Positions 3,678 to 7,575 are shown, numbered from the stretch's first letter. The stretch: DNA of 9,701 bases from a virus (IMGVR_UViG_2703719365_000027:1-9701); one strand, 5' to 3'. Translations and numbers: made by a program. Notes: generated by a model from the letters alone, not told the origin.

Positions 3678-4424
3678 TTACTTCGCAATTCCTAGCTGGA
3701 CGACATTCGGACGCCAGCTCTCCCAGTTAAAATTCACCCATCGCCCGCCGTTCATGGTCATGCGATCCATAATCCGCTCGCCGAGCAATGTTTTCATGGC
3801 CTCATAGTTCAGGTTTGTCAGCATCCCCACGCTGCGCATCGAAGCTGTCCGGCGATCAACAATCTGGTGCAGTACCACCTGCTCGTTTTTCGTCTCACGC
3901 TGGATGCCAATTTCGTCAAGAACCAGGAGGTCCACTTCGCACAGTTCACGCAAAAATTTTTCGCCTGACTGCCCGTCGTCATAGCTGGCGTGCAGGGCGC
4001 TCATAACATCAGCCACGGTAACCACAATCACTGTCTGACCGTCTTTCAGCAGGCGATTCCCGATAGCTGCCGCTAAGTGATTCTTCCCGGTACCAGGTTT
4101 TCCGCTGAACGCAAAATTTGTATACCCAGTCATCAGTTCATCAGCGATGGATTTCGCCTGGCTTAACGCGTATCGCTGGCCGTCGTTCTGCACCTGGTAA
4201 TTCGCAAACGAGCATTTACGGTGCAACGGCTGGATGCCAGAGCGATTCAGAATTTTTTCCACCCGCAACTGACGATTCAGACGGTTGATCTCCTCGCAAC
4301 GTTTCTGGCCTTCAGTAAGTTGCCACTCACGCCACTCCGCAACCGTTCTGAATGGGGCGGTTACATGTGGTGGGGTCAGTCTGCGGATACGCTCCAGAAC
4401 GCCGCCTGTCGCAATATTTTTCAT
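3678..4424 (-). CDS. DnaC/IstB-like AAA+ helicase loader, 248 aa
   Basis: Walker [12 protein letters not shown] and Walker B LLVLDEIG. Size and motifs fit phage DnaC-like loaders. Sits directly downstream of the replication initiator gene. Confidence 0.85.
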
Positions 4425-4430
4425 GGTCTG

Positions 4431-5219
4431 TTACCCCCTGAAGCCTGGCGGGATCGCACTGTCCGGCAACGAGACGGTGTTAACCTGTCGGAGCAACGTC
4501 TCAGGCCGAACACCTTTCGGTGCGAACAAGCCCTGGTATTCATTGGCGATGCTGTGTCGAATCACCTGCTCAGGTGTAAAACCCTGCTGACGGAATTTTT
4601 CCAGTTCCCGTATCGCCCCGTTAGCGCCCTGCTCCGTTCGAATCGGTTTTCGCAATGCCTGCCTGAACTGAACCCACTCATGCCAGAGTGTTTCCGGCAA
4701 CCAGTCAGGCAGCTCGATAGCCTCCGGCTCGAATTTTTTAGACGCTCGTTTTTGGCGAGGGGGATTTAGGGGGAGATCAGTATTTATATCTTCCTCTTCC
4801 TCTTCCTCTGGTAACGCTTTTTGATCCGTTTGTGTAACGCTGGCAGCGTTACCTTTTCGTTTCAGTTCGCGTATTTTTGTAACTCGCTCGTTTGTAACCG
4901 CCCGTTTTTTAGAGCTTTTCCCGTTATGACGTTCAAAGTTAGGTAGAGAAAGCCCACCGTCATTTTCGACCAGCCATCCAACCTGAATTAACGCATCAGC
5001 AAAACCAGCCATAAAAGTGATGCGATCTATTGCACTTTTTGTAACGCCGCGAGCGTTACAATCTGCATTACCGTCTATCATTTGTTGATCCGCCCATGCC
5101 CAGAAGCGAATAACCTTCCCTAATGCGGCATCTGGATCAATATTCAGAATCTCAGCAAGCCTGAATATTTCCGGCTTATCCGGCGTAATAACCTCGAGCT
5201 TTATCCAGTTTGAAGCCAT
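4431..5219 (-). CDS. phage replication initiation/primosomal protein (C-terminal region DnaT-like, tentative), 262 aa
   Basis: ATG at 5219 with AAGGTGA upstream. Sits ahead of the DnaC-like gene as in lambdoid replication modules. Internal poly-Glu linker (EEEEEED). The gene body carries palindromic repeats (see repeat features). Confidence 0.6.
   Translation of the reverse strand: MASNWIKLEVITPDKPEIFRLAEILNIDPDAALGKVIRFWAWADQQMIDGNADCNARGVTKSAIDRITFMAGFADALIQVGWLVENDGGLSLPNFERHNGKSSKKRAVTNERVTKIRELKRKGNAASVTQTDQKALPEEEEEEDINTDLPLNPPRQKRASKKFEPEAIELPDWLPETLWHEWVQFRQALRKPIRTEQGANGAIRELEKFRQQGFTPEQVIRHSIANEYQGLFAPKGVRPETLLRQVNTVSLPDSAIPPGFRG
4834..4852. repeat. 19-bp palindrome GTAACGCT-GGC-AGCGTTAC (copy 1), with extra half-site GGTAACGCT at 4810-4818
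   Basis: Perfect 8-bp arms. Lies inside the replication initiator coding sequence. Confidence 0.7.
5041..5059. repeat. 19-bp palindrome GTAACGC-CGCGA-GCGTTAC (copy 2)
   Basis: 7-bp perfect arms. Lies inside the replication initiator coding sequence. Confidence 0.65.
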
Positions 5220-5296: not shown

Positions 5297-5719
5297 TCAA
5301 TGCACTACGACAGAATCGCCGGGCGACCCACCACCGCTGAAATGTGCTTTCCGGTAAACGGCCTGGACTGCATCATCATGCGCATCAATTGCCGTACTCA
5401 ACGCTTCCTGCGCCGCCAGTAATGCACGGCGTTCCAGGGTATCGAAGATGCAGAGTCGGTGACGCAGCTCGCGCGGAATAATTGCCAGAACCGCAGGGAT
5501 CAGTTTCTGAATTTTTTCCCTTTGCGCTTTCGTTTCACCTTTCAACCAACGGTGATAGATATTCTGCTGATTGTTCCAGTCCTTGCCTGGTACAAGGGGC
5601 AATTCGCCGCCCCCCTGGCGCAGATATTCTTCAGTAATTGCGTTAGCGACCCACGCCTGCCCTTTTTCGGCTGCCAGGGCTAACAACACTGATTCGATGT
5701 GCTCATGCCTGATTTTCAT
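5297..5719 (-). CDS. CII-like regulator, YdaT-family candidate, 140 aa
   Basis: ATGA overlap with the Cro-like gene stop (5716-5719), implying translational coupling. Second gene of the rightward-equivalent operon, same size as Rac YdaT (from memory). Confidence 0.5.
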   Translation of the reverse strand: MKIRHEHIESVLLALAAEKGQAWVANAITEEYLRQGGGELPLVPGKDWNNQQNIYHRWLKGETKAQREKIQKLIPAVLAIIPRELRHRLCIFDTLERRALLAAQEALSTAIDAHDDAVQAVYRKAHFSGGGSPGDSVVVH

Positions 5720-5958
5720 GAATCAACCGCTCCTATGCTGTTTTCGCTATGCTTACCGTCTGGGGGGAATACATCGTCAAGTCCACAATGAGCGCCAAGC
5801 CGATTAAGGGTAGAAACAATTTTTCTGCACTCCTCTAGTCCAGGGGTACGAAAATTTGCTTCGTAATTTGCCAGTCGGCTTTGTATCCACCCTAACTGAA
5901 CAGCAAGTTGTCTTTGAGACAGCCCAAGCTGTTTTCGATATGTTGAAATTTTGTTCAT
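5716..5958 (-). CDS. Cro-like XRE-family HTH regulator, 80 aa
   Basis: ATG at 5958 with GGAGG 6 nt upstream. HTH LGLSQRQLAVQLGWIQSRLANYEA. Divergent from the repressor gene across a 96-bp operator region. Confidence 0.7.
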   Translation of the reverse strand: MNKISTYRKQLGLSQRQLAVQLGWIQSRLANYEANFRTPGLEECRKIVSTLNRLGAHCGLDDVFPPDGKHSENSIGAVDS

Positions 5959-5978
5959 TGAAAACCTCCGATGACAAT

Positions 5979-6007
5979 TTTAAACACATCCTGTGTTATA
6001 TGGTCAA
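5979..6007 (-). promoter_or_regulatory. candidate PR-like sigma70 promoter for the Cro-like operon (TTGACC-17 bp-TTTAAA)
   Basis: Reading the minus strand: -35 TTGACC (plus 6002-6007), 17-bp spacer containing the AACACA-N3-TGTGTT operator, -10 TTTAAA (plus 5979-5984). The resulting leader is short (~14 nt). Confidence 0.4.
5983..5997. promoter_or_regulatory. operator-like inverted repeat AACACA-TCC-TGTGTT
   Basis: Perfect 6-bp arms with a 3-bp spacer inside the divergent intergenic region. The same motif family recurs at the rightward early promoter (6559-6573 and 6582-6596). Confidence 0.5.
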
Positions 6008-6029
6008 GCTGTTTTGTGTTTTATGTAAA

Positions 6030-6042
6030 TCACGATTCGTGA
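6030..6042. promoter_or_regulatory. perfect 13-bp palindrome TCACGA-T-TCGTGA just upstream of the repressor ribosome-binding site
   Basis: Seen directly. It is a different motif from the AACACA/TGTGTT sites, so it may bind a second regulator. Confidence 0.4.
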
Positions 6043-6054
6043 TACAAGGATGCA

Positions 6055-6474
6055 ATGGAAAAAGAAAACGAAAAAATTGCCGCTAGTAGGCTCAATGACA
6101 AAATTGCAATGCGTCTTAAAGAGCGCAGGCAGAAGCTTGGTTTATCTCAAGGAAAACTTGCTGAAATCTGCGGATGGACGCAATCGCGTATAGGTAACTA
6201 TGAGGCGGGCAGCAGAAATGTTGGAGTGCATGACGCTGTCGTATTGGGAAAGGCACTTGGCATATCTCCTCCTGAGCTCCTCTTTGGAGAACAGGAATCT
6301 TCTGAATTGTGGTTAAATGAATCCCAACGAAAACTTCTTGAGTTGTTTAACCAGCTACCGGGCTCAGAACAACAACGAATGATTGAGCTATTTGAAGTCC
6401 GGCTAAAAGAAATCGATGAGTATGTAGAAAAATATTTGAGAGGCAGGCTTAAAGATAATCCCCTACCGGAGTAA
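6055..6474 (+). CDS. prophage repressor, XRE/cI-like HTH without peptidase domain (RacR/DicA-type), 139 aa
   Basis: ATG at 6055 with AAGGA upstream. HTH LGLSQGKLAEICGWTQSRIGNYEA. No S24 peptidase Ser/Lys motif and too short to carry one. Divergent from the Cro-like gene and followed by an intrinsic terminator. Confidence 0.8.
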   Translation: MEKENEKIAASRLNDKIAMRLKERRQKLGLSQGKLAEICGWTQSRIGNYEAGSRNVGVHDAVVLGKALGISPPELLFGEQESSELWLNESQRKLLELFNQLPGSEQQRMIELFEVRLKEIDEYVEKYLRGRLKDNPLPE

Positions 6475-6503
6475 TGATCTTGCTATCACAGTAATATGCC
6501 AAT

Positions 6504-6530
6504 CAGCCCGCTATCAGCGGGCTTTTTTTG
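6504..6530 (+). terminator. intrinsic terminator after the repressor gene
   Basis: Stem AGCCCGC / GCGGGCT (7 bp) with loop TATCA, followed by TTTTTTT. Confidence 0.75.
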
Positions 6531-6558
6531 TACCATCATCATATGACACCCACCCTAA

Positions 6559-6573
6559 AACACATTTCGTGTT
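6559..6573. promoter_or_regulatory. operator-like site AACACA-TTT-CGTGTT overlapping the -35 of the rightward early promoter
   Basis: Same 6-3-6 geometry as the site at 5983-5997, with 11 of 12 arm positions matching. Confidence 0.45.
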
Positions 6574-6600
6574 GACATAAGAAAACGTATTGTGTTTAAT
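6572..6600 (+). promoter_or_regulatory. near-consensus sigma70 promoter (pL-like): TTGACA-17 bp-TTTAAT
   Basis: -35 TTGACA at 6572-6577, exact 17-bp spacer, -10 TTTAAT at 6595-6600. A second degenerate operator AAAACG-TAT-TGTGTT (6582-6596) overlaps the -10. Drives the ydaF-like to recE operon. Confidence 0.6.
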
Positions 6601-6780
6601 AAGCATATCCAAACAACGCCCCACCAGAGAACGGCAGGACAATACCTCGAGTTATCCAGCCACTGAACAGGGCTAAGTAGCCAGCCTGAGGCATACGAAC
6701 ATGACGGCAGTTGTTGATTGATACAAAGCGCAGTAGATAAAACGTTCCGCCACCCGGCGTTAAGGGGAAATGAGGTCAAC

Positions 6781-6933
6781 ATGGATACTATCGATCTTGG
6801 CAACAACGAATCTCTGGTATGTGGCGTGTTTCCCAATCAGGACGGCACATTCACCGCCATGACGTATACCAAAAGCAAATCGTTTAAAACCGAAGCTGGC
6901 GCACGTCGCTGGCTTGCCAAAAATACCAGCTAA
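6781..6933 (+). CDS. DUF1391-type small protein (YdaF/YdfA-like), 50 aa
   Basis: ATG at 6781 with GAGG 5 nt upstream. MDTIDLGNNESLV... resembles the small proteins that follow the repressor in the Rac and Qin prophages (from memory). Preceded by a ~174-nt untranslated leader. Confidence 0.6.
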   Translation: MDTIDLGNNESLVCGVFPNQDGTFTAMTYTKSKSFKTEAGARRWLAKNTS

Positions 6934-7114
6934 ACCATTTATTGGATTAATTCAATATTCTTGCTGTAGGGGTATAGCCGAGGCCACCAAAGCCCGGAGG
7001 TGGTGAAATAAAACCGGGCACAACACGAAGGCGCATTTCCGGTATCCATAAAGAGTCGGTCTTGTCTGTTAAATTTAAATGGTGGGAGTGCGCCTCCGGT
7101 TGTGAATAACAACA

Positions 7115-7178
7115 CTGCTGTGTGTAGTCTTGGCGGCATCAGTTTTTTCTTGAAGTTCGACTGATGTCCGCCCTTTTT
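7115..7178 (+). ncRNA. dicF: DicF-like small RNA candidate (5' end approximate)
   Basis: Sequence TTGGCGGCATCAGTTTT ... CCGCCCTTTTT matches the DicF 3' region as I recall it from the Qin prophage. Sits in a 420-bp ORF-free gap and ends in an intrinsic terminator. Confidence 0.5.
7132..7178 (+). terminator. intrinsic terminator (also the 3' hairpin of the DicF-like RNA)
   Basis: Stem GGCGGCATCAG / CTGATG-T-CCGCC (11 bp, one bulged T), 18-nt loop, then CTTTTT. Confidence 0.7.
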
Positions 7179-7353
7179 AAAGTGAATTTTGTGATGCGGT
7201 GAATGCGGCTAAGCGCACGCGGCACAGTTAAAAGTCATGTTAGTCCTTATTGGTTTGGGTGGGAAAGCCGACTGTAATTGTTAACTGGTTGCAGTCACCT
7301 GGAGGCACCAGGCACCGCATCAACAAAGTTCATTTGTAAAAATGGAGATAATT

Positions 7354-7575
7354 ATGATTGCACATCACTTCGGAACTGATGAAATACCACGTCAGTGTGT
7401 GACTCCTGGTGATTATGTTCTTCATGAAGGCCGGACATATATCGCCTCGGCAAACAATATTAAAAAACGAAAACTTTATATTCGTAACCTGACCACAAAA
7501 ACATGCATTTCTGACTGCATGGTTAAAGTCTTCCTCGGTAGTGATGGTTTACCTGTAAAAGCGGAGTCATGGTGA
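7354..7575 (+). CDS. kilR: KilR, Rac-prophage FtsZ-targeting cell-division inhibitor, 73 aa
   Basis: ATG at 7354 with GGAG 6 nt upstream. [46 protein letters not shown]... matches KilR as I recall it. Position ahead of ydaE-racC-recE is as in Rac. Confidence 0.75.

Follow-up and report, generated by a model that had tools for sequence, protein, structure and literature searches.

The window analysed here, a 9,701-nucleotide stretch of viral DNA (IMGVR_UViG_2703719365_000027:1-9701), covers the early region of a lambdoid Escherichia coli prophage of the Rac/Qin mosaic type. Within it, an inverted repeat of the form AACACA-N3-TGTGTT recurs on both sides of a gene encoding a 139-residue DicA-like repressor, and these repeated sites are, in our opinion, very probably the operators by which the repressor would shut the two early promoters that flank its gene. 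Such an arrangement had been put forward in a first-pass annotation made from the sequence alone, which listed one copy of the repeat (5983-5997) at the divergent switch between the repressor gene and a Cro-like gene, and two copies (6559-6573 and 6582-6596), spaced 23 bp from centre to centre, at a rightward promoter downstream of the repressor gene. All three copies exist, and the spacing is exact. The list nevertheless required two corrections. The switch contains three sites rather than one, those at 6006-6020 and 6029-6043 having been missed; and the third copy listed, although its right half is invariant, has a hypervariable left half (6582-6587) and, because this half is not conserved, is at best a half-operator.

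The first line of evidence is the position and rarity of the sites (Table 1). The 96-bp divergent intergenic region holds three sites, OR1, OR2 and OR3, centred at 5990, 6013 and 6036, and two more, OL1 and OL2, centred at 6566 and 6589, lie 85-126 bp past the repressor stop codon; every step within the two sets is 23 bp. The half-site of OR3 is a variant, with T for A at position 2. Since the direct-repeat families D3 and D6 share an identical offset of 576 bp, the OR and OL pairs are in register. With up to two mismatches to AACACA-N3-TGTGTT allowed, the window contains four matches against 0.57 expected, and three of the four fall within the two intergenic regions, which together span 226 bp (Poisson, 4e-7, the regions having been picked after the hits were seen). 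All three copies of the core CACR-N3-YGTG in the 9.7-kb window lie in the two regulatory regions, and 6 of the 14 YGTGTT half-sites are packed into 76 bp (P about 7e-10). The operator motif is likewise confined to these places in a 41-kb stretch of a complete O103 genome, which comprises the early and lysis genes of the prophage plus some flanking chromosome and is 99.6% identical to the window over 5716-6940.

The second line of evidence is the conservation of the half-sites among relatives. For this comparison, 1.26 kb around the repressor gene were aligned with MAFFT for 80 loci of a viral collection that encode the same repressor, 64 of them at 97-99% protein identity (the window included; one fetched locus was too short and was left out) and 16 at 83-84%. 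A scan of a genome collection gave five distant loci, and the viral collection was far more useful. When the two regions were compared across these related prophages, as the first-pass annotation had suggested, the half-sites proved to be kept: of the 48 half-site positions scored as conserved, 46 never vary. The 2 variable ones compare with 52 among the 119 remaining positions of both zones (Fisher, 1e-7) and with 28 among the 139 third codon positions in the repressor gene. In terms of nucleotide diversity (pi), the central triplets reach 0.137 and the repressor third codon positions 0.026, against 0.004 for the half-sites of OR1, OR3 and OL1. The half-sites of OR1 and OR3 are invariant in all 80 loci, with nine different centres seen in OR1 (TCC, TCT, CCT, CAT, AAT, ATT, GAT, AGT and ATC), and in OL1 AACAC and GTGTT are invariant, with nine centres in class A. 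Fixed arms around a free centre are the pattern expected when a dimeric helix-turn-helix (HTH) protein makes no contact with the middle bases. OR2 and OL2 are fixed on one side only. The stretch TTTTGTGTTTT (6012-6022), which contains the right half of OR2, is invariant, and positions 6008-6011 vary; OL2 has 12 variants among the class A loci and 9 among those of class B, the differences being confined to the left half and the centre. Pooled, the left halves of OR2 and OL2 have a pi of 0.09-0.27 and rank with the most variable parts of the locus, while their right halves are fixed.

The third line of evidence is the joint change of half-site and recognition helix. Distant relatives were found in Citrobacter, Enterobacter and Raoultella, in a second E. 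coli phage group (phage pPE4) and among metagenomic phages; their repressors have the C-terminal domain in common and differ in the recognition helix. Helices GWTQSRIGNYE and GWAQSRIGNYE go with AACACA-N3-TGTGTT, helices GWSGSSRIANYE and GWS..SRLANYES with TTCACR-N3-YGTGAR, and helix GWATASRVGNYE with GACACR-N3-YGTGTC, while the operator of K-12 DicA is TGTTAG-N6-CTAACA. Every helix-matched motif occurs in two places, the divergent region and the TTGAC promoter past the repressor terminator, in steps of 23-25 bp, and each promoter in these relatives carries one full site and one half-site. The third site of the switch deviates at position 2 in type 1 (TQSR helix), Citrobacter and Enterobacter, whereas the TTCAC-type phages show no such deviation. 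Because the half-site covaries with the helix at both regions, the sites can be tied to the repressor, and the two-sided layout can be regarded as a trait of the family. The footprint across the 80 loci and this covariation together support the earlier proposal that the repressor would act from both flanks of its own gene.

The one-sided constraint on OR2 and OL2 allows a narrower interpretation, in which only the full palindromes OR1, OR3 and OL1 are operators, 6006-6020 and 6582-6596 stay unbound, and TGTGTT is kept there for promoter function or by chance. The extreme variability of the two left halves speaks for it, as does the fact that TGTGTT at 6591-6596 runs into the -10 hexamer of the rightward promoter. 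At 6015-6020, however, TGTGTT lies in no good promoter hexamer and is invariant all the same; the half-site is retained at an equal step of 23-25 bp in the relatives; and in type 2 phages the full palindrome is the spacer site and the half-site is the -35 site. Moreover, the footprinted region of prophage CP-933P also contains repeats that lack the left half (PMC8630535). We therefore consider the narrower interpretation unlikely.

Another explanation is that the main reader of the sites is the Cro-like protein or a host factor, with the 139-residue protein acting elsewhere. The recognition helix of the Cro-like protein nearly equals that of the repressor, and the words CACA and TGTG recall the half-sites of CRP. 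The operator type nevertheless tracks the repressor, given that Cro-like proteins with the same helix adjoin both AACACA-type and TTCACA-type operators, and elsewhere in the 41 kb examined the motif does not occur. The CRP consensus is TGTGA-N6-TCACA, and the half-site order found here, CACA...TGTG with a 3-bp gap, is its reverse; a CRP-type host site was rejected for its wrong half-site order and spacing. Taken as a whole, this explanation is very improbable. That the two regions are alike through a duplicated promoter module, with no protein bound at all, is scarcely credible either, as shared ancestry cannot account for fixed half-sites beside free centres, and duplication leaves unexplained the palindromic symmetry, the existence of OR3 (part of neither early promoter) and the joint change of helix and half-site at both regions.

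The placement of the sites relative to the early promoters is consistent with the proposed repression. A consensus promoter scan listed neither early promoter, since the tool demands an A as the second base of the -10 hexamer and both have a T there; the promoters were read by eye and checked against relatives. The hexamers of the candidate leftward promoter (P_R-like) are largely conserved among them, while in the rightward promoter (P_L/dicBp-like) TTTAAT is invariant and TTGACA nearly so. The first-pass annotation had placed OR1 in the spacer of the former and the two downstream copies over the -35 and -10 of the latter, TTGACA-17-TTTAAT, and this geometry holds. OR1 lies in the spacer of the leftward TTGACC-17-TTTAAA and extends 2 bp over the -10, with OR2 2 bp over the -35; OL1 extends 2 bp over the rightward -35, and OL2 lies in the spacer with its right half 2 bp over the -10. 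Both promoters are thus built alike: a site lapping the -35 by 2 bp, a gap of 8 bp, and a spacer site lapping the -10 by 2 bp.

Several points weigh against the interpretation of the sites as operators of both promoters. Neither early -10 hexamer has the usual A as its second base, and an alternative leftward -10 with a 19-bp spacer exists; for these reasons the exact overlaps of sites and promoters are uncertain. The left halves of OR2 and OL2 are unconstrained, and promoter function alone could explain the fixed right half of OL2, which abuts the -10. Conservation among close relatives is partly shared ancestry. The occurrence of one Cro-like protein beside two operator types misfits a model with a single specificity for both proteins. 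Finally, we infer both the binding and the transcript starts at this locus from the sequence.

If the sites are operators of the DicA-like repressor, as we favour, its dimer would most likely bind 15-bp operators of the form A-A/T-CAC-R-N3-Y-GTG-T/A-T. Dimers would fill OR1 and OL1 and would aid a second dimer, presumably cooperatively, onto the weak OR2 and OL2. Occupied sites would exclude RNA polymerase from both early promoters, as is to be expected from their positions in the spacer and on the -10, and on the -35. To the left, this would silence the operon of the Cro-like, YdaT and replication genes; to the right, it would silence ydfA, the DicF-like RNA, kilR, recET and xis-int. The claim that the downstream operon includes kilR and recE agrees with the O103 genome, where the rightward operon is annotated with kilR, ydaE, recE, recT, ralR, xis and int. 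OR3, which lies over the presumed maintenance promoter of the repressor, would probably mediate negative autoregulation at high repressor levels, and is probably also the site at which the Cro-like protein stops repressor synthesis.

The maintenance promoter is suggested by a TA..A. hexamer that is followed, after 6-7 nt, by the repressor ATG in nine divergent classes (the window, at 6043-6057, and L066, L082, L085, L091, L098, L121, L122 and L125). This short distance suggests that the maintenance mRNA is leaderless, as are those of lambda cI and of paaR2 (PMC8630535). If it is, OR2 would be centred at -42 and OR3 at -19. The activating position of lambda CI is -42, which OR2 would thus match if the leaderless start holds.

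The repressor combines an N-terminal XRE-type HTH domain with a DicA-like C-terminal domain. It is 29% identical to K-12 DicA over 129 residues (E 2e-15) and matches the NCBIfam DicA model NF007257 over its full length (residues 15-133 against model positions 4-131 of 135), with a score of 57.2 bits that lies below the cut-off of 101; K-12 DicA scores 234 bits. Judged by this comparison, it is a distant homologue of DicA, outside DicA proper. It fits the broad group of DicA-like short repressors, which have an XRE HTH and a C-terminal helical LLELFxxLPxSEQ segment, and the order of Cro-like gene, repressor gene, promoter and ydfA is that of the same group. No S24 peptidase domain was found in the 139 residues, for which Pfam shows HTH families only and whose C-terminus aligns with DicA. 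For this reason, lambda-like self-cleavage driven by RecA is not to be expected. Genes for an antirepressor and an ORF6N-domain protein are annotated in the same prophage in the O103 genome. Given these antirepressor-type proteins and the missing peptidase domain, induction is likely to proceed via an antirepressor, as reported for DicA and Rem (PMC10448788) and as with the Gifsy repressors.

The Cro-like protein has a recognition helix (GWIQSRLANYE) close to that of the repressor (GWTQSRIGNYE) and should therefore use the repressor's sites, as in phage 434; the HTH-coding stretches of the two genes form an inverted repeat, I1, that is 83% complementary. Our first guess, that OR3 is a dedicated high-affinity site for the Cro-like protein (since its TCAC type is also that of the type 2 phages), is weakened by the fact that IQSR of the Cro-like helix is nearer to TQSR of type 1 than to GSSR of type 2. 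The genome of pPE4 (L001) shows how the locus is exchanged: it is 95-100% identical to the window up to the start codon of the Cro-like gene (5958) and from 6604 onwards, with TTCACA-type operators, repressor gene, terminator and promoter in place of the interior (L001, 4244-4863). L066 and L098, whose flanks are 98.5% identical, show this swap in a second background. The Cro-like gene thus lies outside the swapped cassette, and in both backgrounds AACACA-type and TTCACA-type operators occur beside Cro-like proteins that have one and the same recognition helix. As a tentative explanation, for which the odds are somewhat less than even, the Cro-like protein may read only the CAC-R-N3-Y-GTG core, while the repressors also read the two outer bases, so that immunity would be uncoupled from lytic commitment. 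If true, such uncoupling would set this region apart from the classical imm regions of lambda, 434 and 21. As an aside, L001 is PP818812.1, vB_Apl-pPE4, deposited as an Actinobacillus pleuropneumoniae phage; it shares stretches of 90-100% identity with the E. coli prophage region, and its recorded host is perhaps worth checking.

The operator zones are also unusually rich in haplotypes. Among the 64 near-identical loci there are 25 haplotypes for 5959-6054 and 32 for 6540-6610, against 4-12 per 96 bp of coding or leader sequence. Positions with three or four alleles amount to 11 of 119 in the operator zones and 2 of 139 at third codon positions (P = 0.008); they include 6550, 6567, 6580, 6587 and 6588, while the half-sites are fixed. 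This diversity may reflect relaxed constraint together with recombination, or the alleles at uncontacted positions may have been selected to tune the switch's set-point.

Several operators between divergent genes, with a second set past the repressor gene, are what characterizes a lambdoid OR/OL layout, and both are found here. The nearest well-described systems are those of Qin and CP-933P. For Qin, three operators that resemble those at lambda PR and PL are reported in the dicA-dicC intergenic region and between dicA and dicBp just upstream of ydfA (PMC10448788, citing original work by Bejar and colleagues); in vivo, only Oc was found bound by DicA in K-12 (PMC3441716). The K-12 sequence confirms the same site placement, with dicBp a TTGAC promoter whose two sites lie at the -35 and in the spacer. 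Qin and the window share a short, peptidase-less repressor with a homologous C-terminal domain, a divergent Cro-like gene and a DicF-type RNA downstream. They differ in the HTH, in the operator (TGTTAG-N6-CTAACA, 18-20 bp, in Qin; the 15-bp 6-3-6 AACACA type here) and in the downstream genes, dicB in Qin and kilR-recET here.

In CP-933P, PaaR2 and YdaS control PR, PRM and PL, the last lying past the repressor operon, as established by electrophoretic mobility shift assays, footprints and gfp fusions (PMC8630535). The repressor gene, the divergent Cro-like gene and ydaT are in the same order as in the window. Also alike are the evenly spaced switch repeats, some without one half, and a PL with similar operators; in CP-933P this PL is repressed by both proteins and the repressor mRNA is leaderless (PMC8630535), as would probably be the case here. 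The CP-933P repeats are, in contrast, 18-bp palindromes with the half-site consensus GTTTAGTAA, and PaaR2 is followed by a toxin-antitoxin pair that is absent from this locus; a PDB sequence search with the repressor gave no match to a PaaR2 structure. YdaT of CP-933P binds TTGATT-N6-AATCAA at a site, OM, at the end of ydaS (PMC9986795). In the window, a ydaT gene directly follows the Cro-like gene and a similar motif lies at their junction, as in a switch of the YdaS/YdaT type.

The first-pass annotation had called the layout lambda-like, which is apt for the two-sided arrangement and not for the repressor, whose type is closer to Qin DicA and CP-933P. Lambda likewise has operators on both sides of the repressor gene and a tripartite OR with steps of 23-24 bp and an intrinsically weak middle site. 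The lambda sites are centred at -65, -42 and -19, and the values here would be the same with a maintenance start at 6055. Lambda differs in the S24 self-cleavage domain of its repressor, in operators of 17 bp rather than 15 bp, and in three OL sites against two in the window. Here, moreover, OR and OL are only 576 bp apart, and the Cro-like protein, a paralogue of the repressor with an XRE HTH as in phage 434, does not have the lambda Cro fold. Phage 434 offers another parallel, as its repressor and Cro share a recognition helix and operators, and its operators are short palindromes in which the uncontacted central bases vary; the central bases of the 434 operator reportedly tune affinity (Koudelka, Harrison and Ptashne, 1987). 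In the PDB sequence search, the repressor of the window weakly matched the HTH of the 434 repressor (E 7e-4). The 434 operators are, however, 14-bp sequences of the ACAA type, its repressor is cleavable, and its cro gene lies within the immunity region, whereas the Cro-like gene is outside the cassette here. The layout is thus already known for lambda, Qin and CP-933P. No description of the operator AACACA-N3-TGTGTT was found among the papers that a full-text literature search listed, as judged by title and abstract.

Table 1. Features of the window, with the regulatory sites listed first (coordinates from the first nucleotide of the 9,701-nt stretch)
Feature	Coordinates	Strand	Details
OR1	5983-5997		Full 6-3-6 palindrome AACACA-TCC-TGTGTT, AACACATCCTGTGTT; 0 mismatches to AACACA-N3-TGTGTT
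OR2	6006-6020		Half-operator AAGCTG-TTT-TGTGTT; repeat family D6; only right half conserved
OR3	6029-6043		Perfect palindrome ATCACG-ATT-CGTGAT, ATCACGATTCGTGAT; directly before repressor gene
OL1	6559-6573		Full site AACACA-TTT-CGTGTT, AACACATTTCGTGTT; 1 mismatch
OL2	6582-6596		Half-operator AAAACG-TAT-TGTGTT, AAAACGTATTGTGTT; 2 mismatches; in promoter spacer
Leftward early promoter (P_R-like), candidate	5979-6007	-	TTGACC (6007-6002), 17 bp, TTTAAA (5984-5979); read from sequence
Alternative leftward -10	5982-5977	-	TAAAAT; 19-bp spacer; better hexamer
Rightward early promoter (P_L/dicBp-like)	6572-6600	+	TTGACA (6572-6577), 17 bp, TTTAAT (6595-6600)
Putative -10 of repressor maintenance promoter	6043-6048	+	TACAAG; ATG 6 nt later
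Exchangeable immunity cassette	5959-6603		645 bp; OR, repressor gene, terminator, OL/P_L
Repressor gene	6055-6474	+	139 aa; HTH_3 E 6e-13
Intrinsic terminator after repressor gene	6505-6530	+	8-bp stem (hairpin 6505-6523), then T run
Cro-like HTH protein gene (YdaS/DicC position)	5716-5958	-	80 aa; HTH_3 E 7e-10
YdaT operator-like repeat	5709-5726		CTGATTTTCATGAATCAA; Cro-like/ydaT junction; 1 mismatch to TTGATT-N6-AATCAA
YdaT, CII-like regulator gene	5297-5719	leftward	Pfam YdaT_toxin E 2e-10; phrog_163 (CII-like) E 3e-36
O-like replication gene	4431-5219	leftward	
DnaC-like gene	3678-4424	leftward	
ydfA-like gene (DUF1391)	6781-6933	+	First in rightward operon; E 4e-29
DicF-like small RNA	7119-7173	+	42.8 bits, E 3e-8 (351-nt search); Rfam gathering score 48
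kil/kilR	7342-7575	+	phrog_294 E 2e-37
recE	about 8190 to past window end		After kilR

The rightward operon has some further features of its own. Between the rightward promoter and ydfA lies a 175-nt leader (6604-6780) that is near-invariant across immunity types, and 6604-6768 is 100% identical in pPE4. The leader gave no fold better than shuffled sequence (z = +1.5), and for this reason the idea of a structured put/nut-like RNA was dropped; unstructured signals may remain. Inside the leader, the minus strand contains a terminator-like hairpin with a T-rich tail (6617-6641), which relies on G-U pairs, so that only a leftward transcript would fold into it; a leftward gene in need of this hairpin was not identified. 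At Rfam gathering thresholds the window has no match, and the 5' seed region of the DicF-like RNA differs from the Rfam consensus. It is followed by a sub-threshold STnc100-like match (37.4 bits, 7175-7361, plus strand), both being located between ydfA and kil.

Operators that flank the repressor gene are a textbook principle, already shown in the nearest relatives, and are ordinary for lambdoid prophages. What the present analysis provides is a concrete operator consensus and promoter map for an immunity type that is widespread: at least 153 complete E. coli genomes contain at least 80% of 5716-6940, strains of Shiga toxin-producing E. coli O103 and O145 among them. In these prophages the repressor would keep kilR, the DicF-like RNA, recET and xis-int silent, and the map indicates where derepression of these genes could be sought. 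The related cassettes, in which recognition helix and half-site have changed together, form a natural series on the DNA specificity of XRE-type repressors.

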